Shown in pieces: positions 14,361 to 18,192 of a stretch of DNA of 53,135 nt. The stretch's first letter is position 1; each line of letters begins with the position of its first letter. The translations under genes were made by a program, and so were the position numbers. The notes under the pieces were generated by a model, which saw only the letters and a program-made list of their open reading frames with translations, did no database searches and was not told the origin of the DNA. This DNA comes from Candidatus Nealsonbacteria bacterium RIFOXYB1_FULL_40_15 (GTDB taxonomy: Bacteria; Patescibacteriota; Minisyncoccia; Minisyncoccales; GWA2-38-27), in NCBI GenBank assembly GCA_001821555.1, contig MHMM01000006.1:1-53135 (forward strand), read 5' to 3'.

Positions 14361-14433
14361 AAAAAATGAGTTAAAAAATGAGCCTGGCTCATCGAAAAAT
14401 GAGCGAGGCTCATTTTTTATAGGCTCATTTTTT
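14361..14433. repeat. Cluster of ATGAGCC-N-GGCTCAT palindromic units (REP-like)
   Basis: AAAAAATGAG, AAAAAATGAGCCTGGCTCAT, AAAAATGAGCGAGGCTCATTTTTT and AGGCTCATTTTTT in tandem; the same unit occurs at 30847-30884. Confidence 0.75.
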
Positions 14434-14479
14434 ATATAAGGCAGGGCTTAGACTAAAAACAGACGAGGAAAGAAAGGTT

Positions 14480-15613
14480 TTAGATCAGATTAAAAAGGTA
14501 GTAAGCTCCGAGAATAAATAGAATAACAGCTTCGGCCAATGCCGCCCATGTTACAACTTTGCTTGATGCAAGCCATATCTTCATAGAGAAAAAGGCTATC
14601 AAAAAGACTATGATTTCGTCCAGCATATAAAAAAGGACGAAAATAGAAATATAGGCAATATATTGAAAAGTTGAAAGCCCTGCCTGAGCCAAAACCCCCG
14701 CAAAAGCAACTGGCACTACCGCAGAGCAGGGAAACTCAATGATCGTGATTATTCCTGCGAATAAAAGCACTAATGCCAAAAGAAAAACAATGCTCCCTGA
14801 TTCTTTGAAAAGATTTTGGAATCTTAATGTAATTTTAGATATAAGGCCTATTTTTGAAACTTCGCAGGCAGGCCCATGCTTTCTGAATTTTAAGAAAGCA
14901 TTTAAAAAATATGCTCCTCCTATAATCCCCAAAACACCGACTAAAAACTGCATCAGCTTCATATACGGGACGAAAAGAGCAAATATTTTATACCAAGCCA
15001 CTATTAAAAGTCCGTAAATAAGAGCCGTTGTAAAAATGAAAAGTCCTCCGAAAAGAAGCACTCTTTTCCTAGACTTAAAGGCCAAAACAAGCCCGAGTAT
15101 CAAGACTAGGGCGCCCAAAGAGCAAACGTTGAATCCGTCCAAGGATCCTAAAATAACGGCGAGAAGCGGTAAGGAATAGTTCTTTGTATTTATCGTTCCT
15201 AAAAAAGGAATTCTTACATTCCCCTCCATATCAATAGCAGTGGTTTTATCTCCCGAAACTCCGTCTTTATAGCATATGTCGTCCAAACAGCTCTTTATGT
15301 CTTTTGCCACCTGTCCGTCAAATCCTACGAAATATCTGGCTTTAGTAAATGTGGCAGGAACCATGCCGTGGTAATATTCGGGCACGTTATAGTCATGGTA
15401 ATACTGCTTCAGCTTGCCTATGTTTTCCGATTCTGCGACAGAATACCTGTTTATAACAAGATCTGGATAGTCCTTTTCAAGCTGATCCAGAAACTTTTTC
15501 TCCTCTGCGCAATGGGGGCATGTGGGGCTGTAAAAAAAATCAATCGTTGCCTCTTTTGCAAAAACAAAAAGGGGCAAGAAAAACAATAAAAAACAGAATA
15601 AGATCTTTTTCAT
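14480..15613 (-). CDS. Thioredoxin/glutaredoxin domain fused to a DsbD/CcdA-like membrane domain
   Basis: Signal peptide, FYSPTCPHC, membrane Cys pair DGFNVCSL ... EFPCSAVVP. Confidence 0.78.
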   Translation of the reverse strand: MKKILFCFLLFFLPLFVFAKEATIDFFYSPTCPHCAEEKKFLDQLEKDYPDLVINRYSVAESENIGKLKQYYHDYNVPEYYHGMVPATFTKARYFVGFDGQVAKDIKSCLDDICYKDGVSGDKTTAIDMEGNVRIPFLGTINTKNYSLPLLAVILGSLDGFNVCSLGALVLILGLVLAFKSRKRVLLFGGLFIFTTALIYGLLIVAWYKIFALFVPYMKLMQFLVGVLGIIGGAYFLNAFLKFRKHGPACEVSKIGLISKITLRFQNLFKESGSIVFLLALVLLFAGIITIIEFPCSAVVPVAFAGVLAQAGLSTFQYIAYISIFVLFYMLDEIIVFLIAFFSMKIWLASSKVVTWAALAEAVILFILGAYYLFNLI

Positions 15614-15625
15614 GGGATATAAAAA

Positions 15626-16300
15626 TTATAGCAAAACAAAATCATTAATAACTAAGCCGAAATTGTATCCCAAATATTCTGCGGCCCTCCTGCAGAGAAC
15701 CATTCTGTCCGTAAATATCTCAAAGTATTCCATCACTGGGCAAAAGTTCGTATCTATTTTCAAGGCAAGTATTATCCTTTTCTTTTCTTTGTCTATTCTT
15801 AAGTCGGCTTTTTCGGTCGCATAGTTTACTCTGTCATGTATATCTTTTCTCACATCTTCTGTCCGGTTGGAAGAAACTCTTGACCTATGGACATCCGCCT
15901 TATCAGCCAGAATAACTACCGCAGAAGCAGGATTAGTCAGAGCAAGCTCCCTTACCTTCTCGTCATGATAGGATATGGCTTGCATAATTTTGGTAATCTG
16001 GACTGCATCCGATTCTTTCTGAAAAACCTGATGAAAAAGGATAGCCGCCGTGTAATTATGAAACGGCCTGCCTATGAAATTGCCCATGTCATGGCAAAAA
16101 GCGGCTATTCCAGCTGCTTCTTGGTCTTCTTTGGACAATTCCAACTCTTTTGCTATAGCAAGAGCCCTGTCAGAAACTACAGCAGAATGCCTTAAGCCGT
16201 GATCGGTATAGGCCAGCTTCTTCAGTGCGGCTTCTGTTTTGTTTATAAACTCCAATATCTGCTTGTTTTTCTTAACCTTGGCTAATGTTATCATTAGCAA
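15626..16300 (-). CDS. HD-domain phosphohydrolase
   Basis: DHGLRHS ... CHDMGN ... HD ... LADKAD. Confidence 0.85.
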   Translation of the reverse strand: MLMITLAKVKKNKQILEFINKTEAALKKLAYTDHGLRHSAVVSDRALAIAKELELSKEDQEAAGIAAFCHDMGNFIGRPFHNYTAAILFHQVFQKESDAVQITKIMQAISYHDEKVRELALTNPASAVVILADKADVHRSRVSSNRTEDVRKDIHDRVNYATEKADLRIDKEKKRIILALKIDTNFCPVMEYFEIFTDRMVLCRRAAEYLGYNFGLVINDFVLL

Positions 16301-16311
16301 GATTATACCAT

Positions 16312-16860
16312 TTATCCCATTGCAGATTCAAGCCGCTCGCCTGCTTTATCCCAATTCGCGATATTCCAAAAGTTCTCTACGAATTTTGCCTTCTCATTCT
16401 TATAATCAAGGTAATAGGCATGCTCCCAGACGTCCAAAATAAGAAGGATTTTTGATTCGGGATACAAAAATAGATTATGTTTTTCTATCTGCTCTAAAAG
16501 GAGTTTTCCTGAAAATTTCTCATAAACAAGAACTGCCCAAGCCGAACCTTCTGCTGAAACTGCGGTTTCAGAGAATAGTTTTTTGAAATTTTCAATGTTT
16601 CCAAAGTTCTTTTCAATCTCTTCTTTTATCCTGCCTTCAGGATCGCCCGACTCTTTTCTCATATTTTCCCAAAAAAGAGAATGCAGGATATGTCCTGCCA
16701 GATTGAAAGAAAGAGGCTTTGAGACGCCTTTGTCCAGAAGACTGTTCGCCTTATCCACATATCCTTTGTGATGCTTTGTGTGATGGATAAAAAGCTGTTC
16801 TTCTGAAATGTAGGGCTCCAAGTCTTTATACCCGTAAGGAAGCTTAGGCAGACTATACAT
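16312..16860 (-). CDS. sod: Fe/Mn superoxide dismutase
   Basis: YSLPKLPY, HHTKHH, GHILHSLFW, DVWEHAYYLDY; start set at MYSLP (ORF track opens at 16914). Confidence 0.93.
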   Translation of the reverse strand: MYSLPKLPYGYKDLEPYISEEQLFIHHTKHHKGYVDKANSLLDKGVSKPLSFNLAGHILHSLFWENMRKESGDPEGRIKEEIEKNFGNIENFKKLFSETAVSAEGSAWAVLVYEKFSGKLLLEQIEKHNLFLYPESKILLILDVWEHAYYLDYKNEKAKFVENFWNIANWDKAGERLESAMG

Positions 16861-17131
16861 GTTCTTCTGCTTCTTTTCTGCCTTTTTCAAGCTCTTCACC
16901 CTGTTCCTGGTCAAGCCTTAATAACAATGTTTGGAATTCCCCCACGTGGGTTTTTTCTTCTCTCGCCACATCCAGAAGGATTTCTTTAAGCGACTTGTCA
17001 GTCGCAAGTTCGGCCATTTGTTCATAAAAATTAACAGCGTCTAGCTCTGCTATCATCCCCGCTCTAAGGATTTCCTGATTTAGTTTTTCTTTGGGAACTT
17101 TATCTATGTTTGTTGGAAGTTGAGATAACAT
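16853..17131 (-). CDS. Short ferritin-like protein, encapsulated-ferritin (EncFtn/Flp) type
   Basis: ILRAGMIAELDAVNFYEQMA ... LLDVAREEKTHVGEF: two helices with ferroxidase E/H motifs. Confidence 0.8.
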   Translation of the reverse strand: MLSQLPTNIDKVPKEKLNQEILRAGMIAELDAVNFYEQMAELATDKSLKEILLDVAREEKTHVGEFQTLLLRLDQEQGEELEKGRKEAEEHV

Positions 17132-17140
17132 ATGTTTGAA

Positions 17141-17398
17141 TTAAATATTTTGTTTATACTCTTTTCTTTCAGAATACTCCTGTTTTTTCCCTATATGCCA
17201 CTGGCCCACCGGCCTTATATACCCCACGATCCTAGAATAAACTTCGCATTTCCTGAAATTTGAAAGGGAGGTATTTTTCTTATAGCACTCTTTGCATTTG
17301 TAAACAGTAATCTTTTTCCCGGAATCGTCGTAAACAAGAGTAAGGCCGTCCTCAAGTTCTTTTTTGCAGTCGTAGCATGCAATTTTTGCATTTTCCAT
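17141..17398 (-). CDS. Stand-alone NrdD C-terminal domain (Zn ribbon plus glycyl-radical loop)
   Basis: CYDC ... CKEC, then EVYSRIVGYIRPVGQWHIGKKQEY, the C-terminal motif of class III ribonucleotide reductases, in only 85 aa. Confidence 0.8.
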   Translation of the reverse strand: MENAKIACYDCKKELEDGLTLVYDDSGKKITVYKCKECYKKNTSLSNFRKCEVYSRIVGYIRPVGQWHIGKKQEYSERKEYKQNI

Positions 17399-17747
17399 AA
17401 AAATGTATATTATAGTAGTTTATTTTTCCGACCTTTAGTTTTTTGTTCTTTAATATTCCGCATTTTGAGCAGATTCCAGAAACATCTATTACCTTTCCGC
17501 AAGCTTCGCATATAAAATGAGAGTGGGGAGACGTGTCTGCGTCAAAATGTACAAAACCTTTGGTTAAAATTGCCTTAATATCCCCCCTCTTCTTCAGCTC
17601 CCCCAATATTCTGTAAACAGTCCCCCTGCTTATTTTGGGCATACTTCTTTTCGCCGCTTCATACACCTCTTCTGCGGTAGGGTGAGTTTTTACATTCCTA
17701 AGATAAGAGATTATAAAAGTTTTTTGGGGAGTTATCCTTTCTTTCAT
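17352..17747 (-). CDS. Fur/PerR-family transcriptional regulator
   Basis: HPTAEEVY, ISRGTVYRIL, HSHFICEACG, CKNC; start set at MKERIT. Confidence 0.88.
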   Translation of the reverse strand: MKERITPQKTFIISYLRNVKTHPTAEEVYEAAKRSMPKISRGTVYRILGELKKRGDIKAILTKGFVHFDADTSPHSHFICEACGKVIDVSGICSKCGILKNKKLKVGKINYYNIHFYGKCKNCMLRLQKRT

Positions 17748-17749
17748 AA

Positions 17750-17764
17750 TAGTAATCATTACTA
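17750..17764. promoter_or_regulatory. Fur-family 7-1-7 operator
   Basis: TAGTAAT-C-ATTACTA perfect inverted repeat immediately upstream of the regulator start; same geometry as Fur/PerR/Zur boxes. Confidence 0.7.
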
Positions 17765-17814
17765 ATTATATTCTTTCTGGAGCATAGGTCAACTGTGGAA
17801 AAGTAAGGGGCTCG

Positions 17815-18159
17815 TCATAAGACGAGCCCATTGACCCATGCTTCGGCCATATCCTTCAGGTTGATTCCGCTAAAGGATATAGACCTTTCGTCCAAGAAAG
17901 CTACGGTTTGGCCCGGAAGCTCCTCTCTCCATTTTATTTCTATTCCCAAGGCATCTTTCATAGCTTTTGCTAAAGCTTCGCGAGGATCAGTTTCGCTGCA
18001 ACCAGCTCCCCTTCTGCAGTCCGAAAGTTCCAGAGCAACGGTGCACAATGAATTTGTTTGAGCCATTTGGAACTTTGCAAGCTTCAGCGCTGGATCTTCG
18101 GTTTCACTTTCGTCGTACTTGTAGCCCAGCTCTATTTTCTCCATTACAGCAGCGTCCAT
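17815..18159 (-). CDS. Hypothetical protein
   Basis: ORF with RBS AAGGAG ahead of ATG 18159 and a downstream hairpin GGGCTCGTC-ATAA-GACGAGCCC; no recognisable motif. Confidence 0.65.
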   Translation of the reverse strand: MDAAVMEKIELGYKYDESETEDPALKLAKFQMAQTNSLCTVALELSDCRRGAGCSETDPREALAKAMKDALGIEIKWREELPGQTVAFLDERSISFSGINLKDMAEAWVNGLVL

Positions 18160-18192
18160 GATTCTCTCCTTTCCAAAGAACAATGAATGAAC

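Follow-up and report, generated by a model that had tools for sequence, protein, structure and literature searches.

What would a piece of the anaerobic ribonucleotide reductase do in an operon of oxidative-stress genes? The question is raised by contig MHMM01000006.1 of the groundwater organism Candidatus Nealsonbacteria bacterium RIFOXYB1_FULL_40_15 (assembly GCA_001821555.1), where a gene for an 85-aa protein resembling the C-terminus of NrdD, the class III ribonucleotide reductase (RNR), lies between the genes of a Fur/PerR-like regulator and of antioxidant proteins. The whole stretch analysed, positions 1 to 53,135 of the contig, is called the window below. Cleavage of activated NrdD by O2 at its radical glycine is established for the E. 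coli enzyme. For pyruvate formate-lyase (PFL), which is also a glycyl-radical enzyme, the E. coli protein GrcA/YfiD and the phage T4 protein Y06I serve as autonomous glycyl radical cofactors. Our comparisons suggest, with a probability of roughly 0.6, that the 85-aa protein is a spare part for NrdD that would be induced by stress, activated by NrdG and docked into O2-cleaved NrdD. This reading is supported by comparative genomics, from which we infer the induction, the installation of the radical by NrdG, the docking and the 'repair'.

The 85-aa protein matches only the last 52 positions of the Pfam NRDD family (PF13597, positions 511-562; 40 bits, cut-off 26.2), and four NrdD models of NCBIfam match it over their final 45-60 positions. 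Nothing in the protein matches NRDD positions 1-510, the part with the barrel and the catalytic Cys loop. Thus, with only 85 residues and no match to this part, it is a domain and not a reductase. The layout is C8xxC11, a beta-hairpin, C35xxC38, C51 and then EVYSRIVG59YIRPVGQWHIGKKQEYSERKEY, giving a tail of the pattern SRIVG59YIRPV...W..GK..E...R with Gly59 as the candidate radical glycine. Across 35 aligned sequences of the family, drawn from the clusters described below, the invariant residues are the five cysteines, those of the segment E52-V-Y-S-R-x-V-G-Y-x-R-P, and K71, E74 and R78. Among these are the predicted Zn-site cysteines C8, C11, C35 and C38 (35/35, and invariant also in a second subfamily described below) and S55, R56, V58, G59, Y60, R62 and P63 of the R-x-x-G-Y loop.

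The protein resembles the glycyl-radical domain (GRD) at the C-terminus of NrdD (P. copri residues 676-739, T4, T. maritima) in its Zn site, its R-x-x-G-Y loop and its W-N-x-G-K-x-x-E...R tail. However, it is separately encoded, without barrel or catalytic cysteines, and its ribbon is longer and family-specific, with an extra beta-hairpin. NrdD aligns only to positions 61-96 of the small-protein profile. For P. copri NrdD, the GRD comprises a Zn site and a Gly loop, spans 64 residues and can become mobile (PMC11226230). A profile search of solved structures returned the T. maritima NrdD tail as the sole match (E 0.02). The AlphaFold2 (AF2) model of the small protein has a mean predicted local distance difference test score (pLDDT) of 63, with 77-81 for the ribbon and <52 for the tail, which is disordered. 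The NRDD match and the invariant residues support the assignment of the gene product as a stand-alone version of the glycyl-radical domain of class III RNR, a putative Zn ribbon with the buried Gly loop behind it. In one clade with the gene order nrdD-small gene-nrdG and a complete NrdD (L070-L072, L074, L075 and L078), C51 is replaced by Thr or Ala; the position is Cys in every other small-protein sequence and in NrdD itself.

A spare part presupposes the parent enzyme and its activase. In the assembly (21 contigs, 761 kb, 99% complete by markers), the small gene is the only NRDD match; class I RNR, class II RNR and NrdG were not found, and no plausible activase is present among its four radical S-adenosylmethionine (SAM) proteins, which are MiaB-like, SPASM-type, ELP3-like and B12-type. 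An earlier note on this DNA, which had proposed the spare-part role, named missing nrdD and nrdG as a refutation; this was ruled out by synteny with relatives and by conspecific contigs. The genomes of five relatives in the same family show nrdD-nrdG within a conserved gene block, at whose end is a glycosyltransferase gene. The same glycosyltransferase gene is the last on contig C10 of the assembly (end region 108623-109468), 84 nt from the contig end. Three conspecific contigs (L015, L017, L019), found by exact-protein look-up with the glycosyltransferase in NCBI, ENA and JGI, share 99.5-100% identity with the final 10.8 kb of C10 (98670-109468) and continue for ~10 kb past its end with four genes, nrdG, nrdD, an 89-aa gene, ftsZ, ftsA and ybeY. 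C10 stops 5 kb before nrdD/nrdG, and the ~10 kb beyond, with ftsZ/ftsA, are absent from the assembly. The absence of nrdD and nrdG is thus an assembly gap, because the conspecific contigs extend C10 into both genes, and the completeness estimate of 99% hides the loss of core genes, since the missing ~10 kb contain nrdG, nrdD, ftsZ and ftsA. The conspecific nrdG encodes 227 aa with Radical_SAM and Fer4_12 domains, and the conspecific nrdD encodes 701 aa with an ATP-cone, NRDD positions 1-562 and its own Gly tail with an intact motif. Judged from these contigs, the class III RNR of the organism is complete and ends in a Gly tail of its own. Full-length nrdD and nrdG, which the earlier note wanted confirmed, are therefore borne out, and the split gene that it considered is not the case here, since NrdD retains its own C-terminus. 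On C10, the motif VGSLKTD is repeated six times in tandem in the protein encoded at 106932-107336, which is 113, 127, 134 or 155 aa long depending on the conspecific assembly.

The tails of the small protein and of the resident NrdD are closely similar. Residues 33-82 of the small protein and 655-697 of NrdD share 62% identity (BLASTP), the two are ~90% identical across 33 residues, and the 3' part of the small gene has 87% DNA identity to the nrdD 3' end. In comparisons of a 29-residue tail window across 49 genome pairs with 10000 permutations, the amino-acid identity of the small protein to NrdD was 0.84 within its own genome and 0.75 with other genomes, and the synonymous-codon identity of the two genes was 0.61 and 0.44, respectively; neither difference was reached in any permutation (0/10000 each). 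The effect was larger for adjacent pairs (synonymous-codon identity 0.78) and extended to distant pairs (0.56). In this genome, the codon is the same at 19 of the 25 positions with a shared residue (0.76), whereas 11 would be expected from codon usage (P ~8e-4). Codon bias was rejected as the source of the synonymous excess, since the codon usage of this genome predicts 0.44 compared with the observed 0.61 for all pairs and 0.76 for this genome. Oddities specific to a lineage are shared too, such as YTRIVGYHRPVNQFN, which the small protein and NrdD of one genome have in common, and IRPVGQWH, found in the pair here. Unlike the tails, the Zn ribbons of the small protein and NrdD are distinct. 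Gene conversion or tight co-adaptation apparently keeps the two tails interchangeable.

A short gene with a 3' part so close to that of nrdD could also be the decaying, functionless fragment of a duplicated nrdD. However, the ribbon of the small protein is family-specific and no copy of the NrdD ribbon, the genomic context is conserved, and at least 135 clusters keep open frames and the invariant motif residues. These clusters, obtained at 90% identity by a word-indexed search, comprise proteins of 79-131 aa from Nealsonbacteria, Portnoybacteria and Patescibacteria. The probability of decay is thus close to negligible.

Among 251 genomes of the order, profile searches found NrdD in 208 and the small gene in 58. 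The small gene and the NrdD tail separate cleanly, because matches to the former have E <= 5e-32 over the whole profile, whereas NrdD tails give ~1e-17 and cover only positions 61-96. A tailed NrdD is encoded in 50 of the 58 small-gene genomes and a tail-less NrdD in six, all of family f21; the remaining two, in which NrdD is missing, are the present assembly and a genome that is 87% complete. These two aside, the small gene was found in none of the ~43 genomes lacking NrdD. The stand-alone domain therefore occurs together with its parent enzyme, as an autonomous cofactor should, in 50 of the 58 genomes and, through the conspecific contigs, with both parent enzyme and activase in this organism. 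A phylum-wide sample of 401 genomes contained one further genome with the small gene.

The context of the small gene was surveyed for 59 copies. It lies directly 3' of a PerR homologue in 28 copies, and the genes 3' of these pairs vary, encoding superoxide dismutase (SOD), rubrerythrin, desulfoferrodoxin, 1-Cys peroxiredoxin, EncFtn-like, hemerythrin/DUF438 or P-type ATPase proteins. About eight more copies adjoin genes for rubrerythrin, superoxide reductase (SOR) or SOD, with PerR undetected there. The gene order nrdD-small gene-nrdG is found in 15 of the 59. The neighbourhood survey of short NRDD proteins proposed in the earlier note thus gave both a PerR and antioxidant setting and an nrdD-nrdG setting, and these ties to oxidative-stress genes and to RNR genes are the pairing predicted by the spare-part idea. 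In the small-protein tree, the contexts cluster yet switch several times; the tree resolves neither its deep branches nor whether duplication or fission came first. One genome has two PerR-small gene pairs (L023 and L044; contig C2 of G158) that are 49 kb apart and have differing downstream genes. In many relatives of the order (L072, L031, L043 and others), the NrdD open reading frames (ORFs) are 1026-1979 aa long owing to large in-frame insertions, up to four per gene, which by eye look like inteins with homing-endonuclease parts.

Two CxxC pairs beside SOD and rubrerythrin-like genes recall the rubredoxin-rubrerythrin-SOR operons of anaerobes, and the small protein could accordingly be imagined as a rubredoxin-like metal or redox stress protein, whose NrdD-like tail would be an evolutionary leftover unlinked to RNR. 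However, the most conserved part is the tail and not the ribbon, this tail and the resident nrdD have changed together, also at synonymous sites, and the family occurs without NrdD only in this assembly and the 87%-complete genome, while 15 copies lie inside nrdD-nrdG. We therefore consider such a protein very unlikely.

In the six f21 genomes with the small gene (three genera, 100% complete; loci L031, L036, L043, L045, L055 and L068), NrdD terminates right past the Zn ribbon (...CPNCKIK.PKK.IK-stop), without the Gly loop. The small gene follows the tail-less nrdD at ~20-100 nt and is itself followed by nrdG. Neither class I nor class II RNR was found in the six genomes. Because NrdD is tail-less and no other RNR is present, the small protein must supply the radical loop in f21 unless no deoxynucleoside triphosphates (dNTPs) are made. 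The small module thus most probably acts in trans in f21, and the f21 core is, as far as its sequence tells, the genetic equivalent of an O2-truncated NrdD. That its ribbon is still there would agree with a scenario in which a spare already existed and the enzyme could then do without its own loop.

The f21 arrangement is also exactly that of a constitutive second subunit, in which case NrdD would normally take the radical loop from the small protein, with its own tail secondary, and the system would be a split enzyme and not one of repair. The position of the small gene between nrdD and nrdG in 15 loci fits this as well. However, the NrdD of the present organism has a complete tail with the motif intact, and the small gene here is under a PerR-type operator with antioxidant genes rather than with nrdD. 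In addition, 193 of the 251 genomes lack the small gene, most of them having NrdD. For these reasons a constitutive subunit appears quite unlikely, and the spare-part reading is preferred.

The Fur-family protein encoded upstream of the small gene has PerR models as its top NCBIfam matches (84.8 and 69.8 bits vs. 42 bits for Fur), with all scores under the equivalog cut-offs. The locus has both elements of a PerR/Fur regulon, a Fur-family repressor and a 7-1-7 palindromic operator at the promoter. The palindrome TAGTAATGATTACTA is the sole copy with <=1 mismatch across the 761-kb assembly, and no other PerR boxes were found elsewhere in the genome at this threshold. A single-mismatch box inside comEC on the conspecific contig L015 was taken as chance. 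Since the palindrome is unique in the assembly, the single operon is probably the entire PerR regulon of the genome. A related box with the consensus TAGGAATNATTAYTA lies 5' of PerR in 27 of the 28 homologous loci. The operator and the promoter appear arranged for repression, which supports the proposed stress-induced role. That the regulator is a PerR, with a peroxide rather than an iron/zinc signal, is favoured by the genes present in the homologous operons.

In anaerobic Firmicutes, PerR regulons include rubrerythrin, desulfoferrodoxin and SOD. The present system resembles them in the Fur-family repressor, in the AT-rich 7-1-7 palindrome over the promoter and in the same antioxidant genes in homologous loci. 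In contrast, the first structural gene here encodes an RNR radical domain, and the regulon is apparently a single operon.

Under the proposed mechanism, PerR bound to the 7-1-7 box at the -10 hexamer would repress the operon. Peroxide or oxygen stress would lead to derepression, and the GRD would be made together with SOD, the ferritin-like protein and the thiol-redox membrane protein. Without a radical the GRD should not be oxygen-sensitive, and because it would become so only when radical-bearing, it could accumulate during the stress, while radical-bearing NrdD would be cut by O2 at its own Gly. Upon the return of anoxia, Gly59 of the small protein would receive a glycyl radical from NrdG, and the loop of the small protein would dock into the truncated NrdD barrel and so restore dNTP synthesis. 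Such a repair would cost 85 residues compared with a new enzyme of 701 residues.

The step at NrdG suggests another role, that of a decoy or brake, in which the small protein would compete for the activase or take the radical under stress and spare NrdD irreversible cleavage. The Zn ribbon and the Gly loop, all that NrdG should recognise, are retained, the gene is co-regulated with stress genes, and the tail co-evolves with the NrdD tail as that of a competitor would. However, the same family must be catalytically productive in f21, and the C-terminal residues predicted to contact NrdD, which a decoy would not need, are conserved and co-vary with NrdD. We regard a decoy as unlikely on its own account; it would be compatible with a spare part, the two roles not being mutually exclusive.

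Several observations weigh against the spare-part reading. O2-cleaved NrdD would keep its own Zn ribbon, making the room for a second ribbon questionable; however, the f21 cores keep theirs. The AF2 tail of the small protein has low confidence, although an unstructured tail is what would be expected of a loop that folds only inside its partner. PerR-type induction would time the synthesis to the presence of oxygen, and we infer the accumulation of the unactivated form. Neither the PerR nor the nrdD-nrdG context is found in 16 of the 59 copies, and conserved neighbours were sought and not found for the subfamily of Desulfobacterales and phages described below. The link to nrdD/nrdG comes from conspecific contigs rather than from one closed genome, and the sequencing runs containing the locus are DNA metagenomes only, with no RNA runs among them.

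The closest functional parallels are GrcA/YfiD and Y06I. GrcA rescues cleaved PFL once activated by the PFL activating enzyme PFL-AE (PMC8683613; PMC13450708), and spare parts are known for formate-lyases only, according to a 2026 review (PMC13450708). Like the two PFL cofactors, the small protein is a separately encoded copy of a radical-bearing C-terminal domain and is found alongside parent enzyme and activase, and phage-borne relatives exist on both sides. By analogy, its expected role would be the replacement of the O2-cleaved domain after activation by the activase of the parent. However, the small protein is homologous to NrdD and not to PFL; the PFL C-terminus (Pfam Gly_radical) has no match in it, and a Pfam scan at E <= 0.01 gives NRDD alone. 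It thus stands outside the GrcA family, because it has no PFL homology, and the resemblance would be a functional one. It also differs from GrcA in having a Cys4 ribbon where GrcA has a disordered N-terminus, and in its setting, which is an antioxidant operon with a PerR-type operator or the interval between nrdD and nrdG.

Full-text searches of the literature turned up no account of an NrdD domain encoded on its own. Of the glycyl-radical enzymes other than PFL, NrdD is probably the first with a replaceable spare part, in the form of the small protein. To our knowledge, all glycyl-radical enzymes are destroyed by oxygen alike, and repair by a spare domain has been shown for PFL only. The small protein is a concrete spare-part candidate for the enzyme by which strict anaerobes make their DNA precursors, with a regulatory tie to peroxide stress, and the f21 pair of truncated core and tail could serve as a ready-made assay system. 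Such a repair might account for the recovery of DNA synthesis in ultra-small, ribosome-poor groundwater symbionts following oxygen pulses, and separable radical domains could aid the engineering or stabilisation of glycyl-radical enzymes.

The family extends beyond the order. An exhaustive HMMER search gave 385 representative clusters at E <= 1e-10, and the best 150 of the 385 are all short proteins. A second subfamily of ~115 aa has the same invariant residues and an extra N-terminal helix (L132-L159; L212-L237 from IMG/VR). At least 25 species genomes of Desulfobacterales/Thermodesulfobacteriota and one Methanophagales metagenome-assembled genome carry it as an orphan gene, and it is also present in ~35 viral contigs, where it adjoins phage lysozyme, D5 primase, YopX and RusA genes. 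Whether class III RNR has a widespread spare-part system, in which autonomous NrdD radical domains charged by NrdG are exchanged into damaged or tail-less NrdD, is in our estimate evenly balanced. If it has, phages would carry the domain to sustain the dNTP supply of the host, as T4 does with Y06I for PFL, and f21 would show that a glycyl-radical enzyme can evolve to consist of two polypeptides, one of them a detachable cofactor subunit.

The features of the operon are collected in Table 1. The earlier note had described the box and the Fur/PerR, 85-aa, EncFtn-like, SOD, HD and thioredoxin (Trx)-DsbD genes as one tight unit; all were found, and the spacing agrees. The PerR gene, whose start is placed at 17747 (131 aa) by gene callers, overlaps the 85-aa gene by 47 nt, and the remaining junctions are overlaps or gaps of 9-12 nt.

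Table 1. Features of the operon on the minus strand of the window (14377-17829), in the order of transcription
Feature	Position	Strand	Evidence
Terminator-like hairpin closing the preceding gene, 5' of the promoter	17808..17829	-	
Sigma-70-like promoter TTGACC-16-TATAAT	17765..17792	-	11/12 consensus matches, top score in the scanned region
Fur/PerR-type 7-1-7 operator TAGTAATGATTACTA	17750..17764	-	Perfect palindrome, abuts the -10 hexamer
Fur-family regulator, PerR-like, 131-135 aa	17352..17759	-	Pfam FUR E 3.4e-22
Putative stand-alone NrdD glycyl-radical domain, 85 aa	17141..17398	-	Pfam NRDD positions 511-562
EncFtn-like/rubrerythrin-like ferritin-fold protein, 92 aa	16853..17131	-	Pfam EncFtn-like E 1.5e-8; NCBIfam EncB_fam E 6.6e-18
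Fe/Mn SOD, 195-200 aa	16312..16914	-	Sod_Fe_N E 2.2e-22; Sod_Fe_C E 2e-32
HD-domain protein, 222-224 aa	15626..16300	-	Pfam HD E 7.8e-5, barely over the cut-off
Membrane protein, 377 aa: N-terminal Trx-like CPHC and CcdA/DsbD-like transmembrane part with cysteines	14480..15613	-	Motifs
Terminator-like hairpin, operon 3' end	14377..14393	-	

The 377-aa membrane protein has a weak NCBIfam Trx match (E 1.1e-5) and gave no match in the Pfam scan, so that its DsbD-like label is motif-based only. A homologue of the HD protein lies 3' of the small gene in one other locus (L037). An encapsulin shell gene (PF04454) was not found in the assembly despite the EncFtn-like gene, whose product might work as a free ferroxidase. 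A 122-aa ORF at 17815-18183 on the minus strand, placed between the PerR operon and tgt, has its own terminator-like hairpin; it has no Pfam match and no homologue in related loci. The same operon is present in at least 10 independent assemblies of this groundwater organism.

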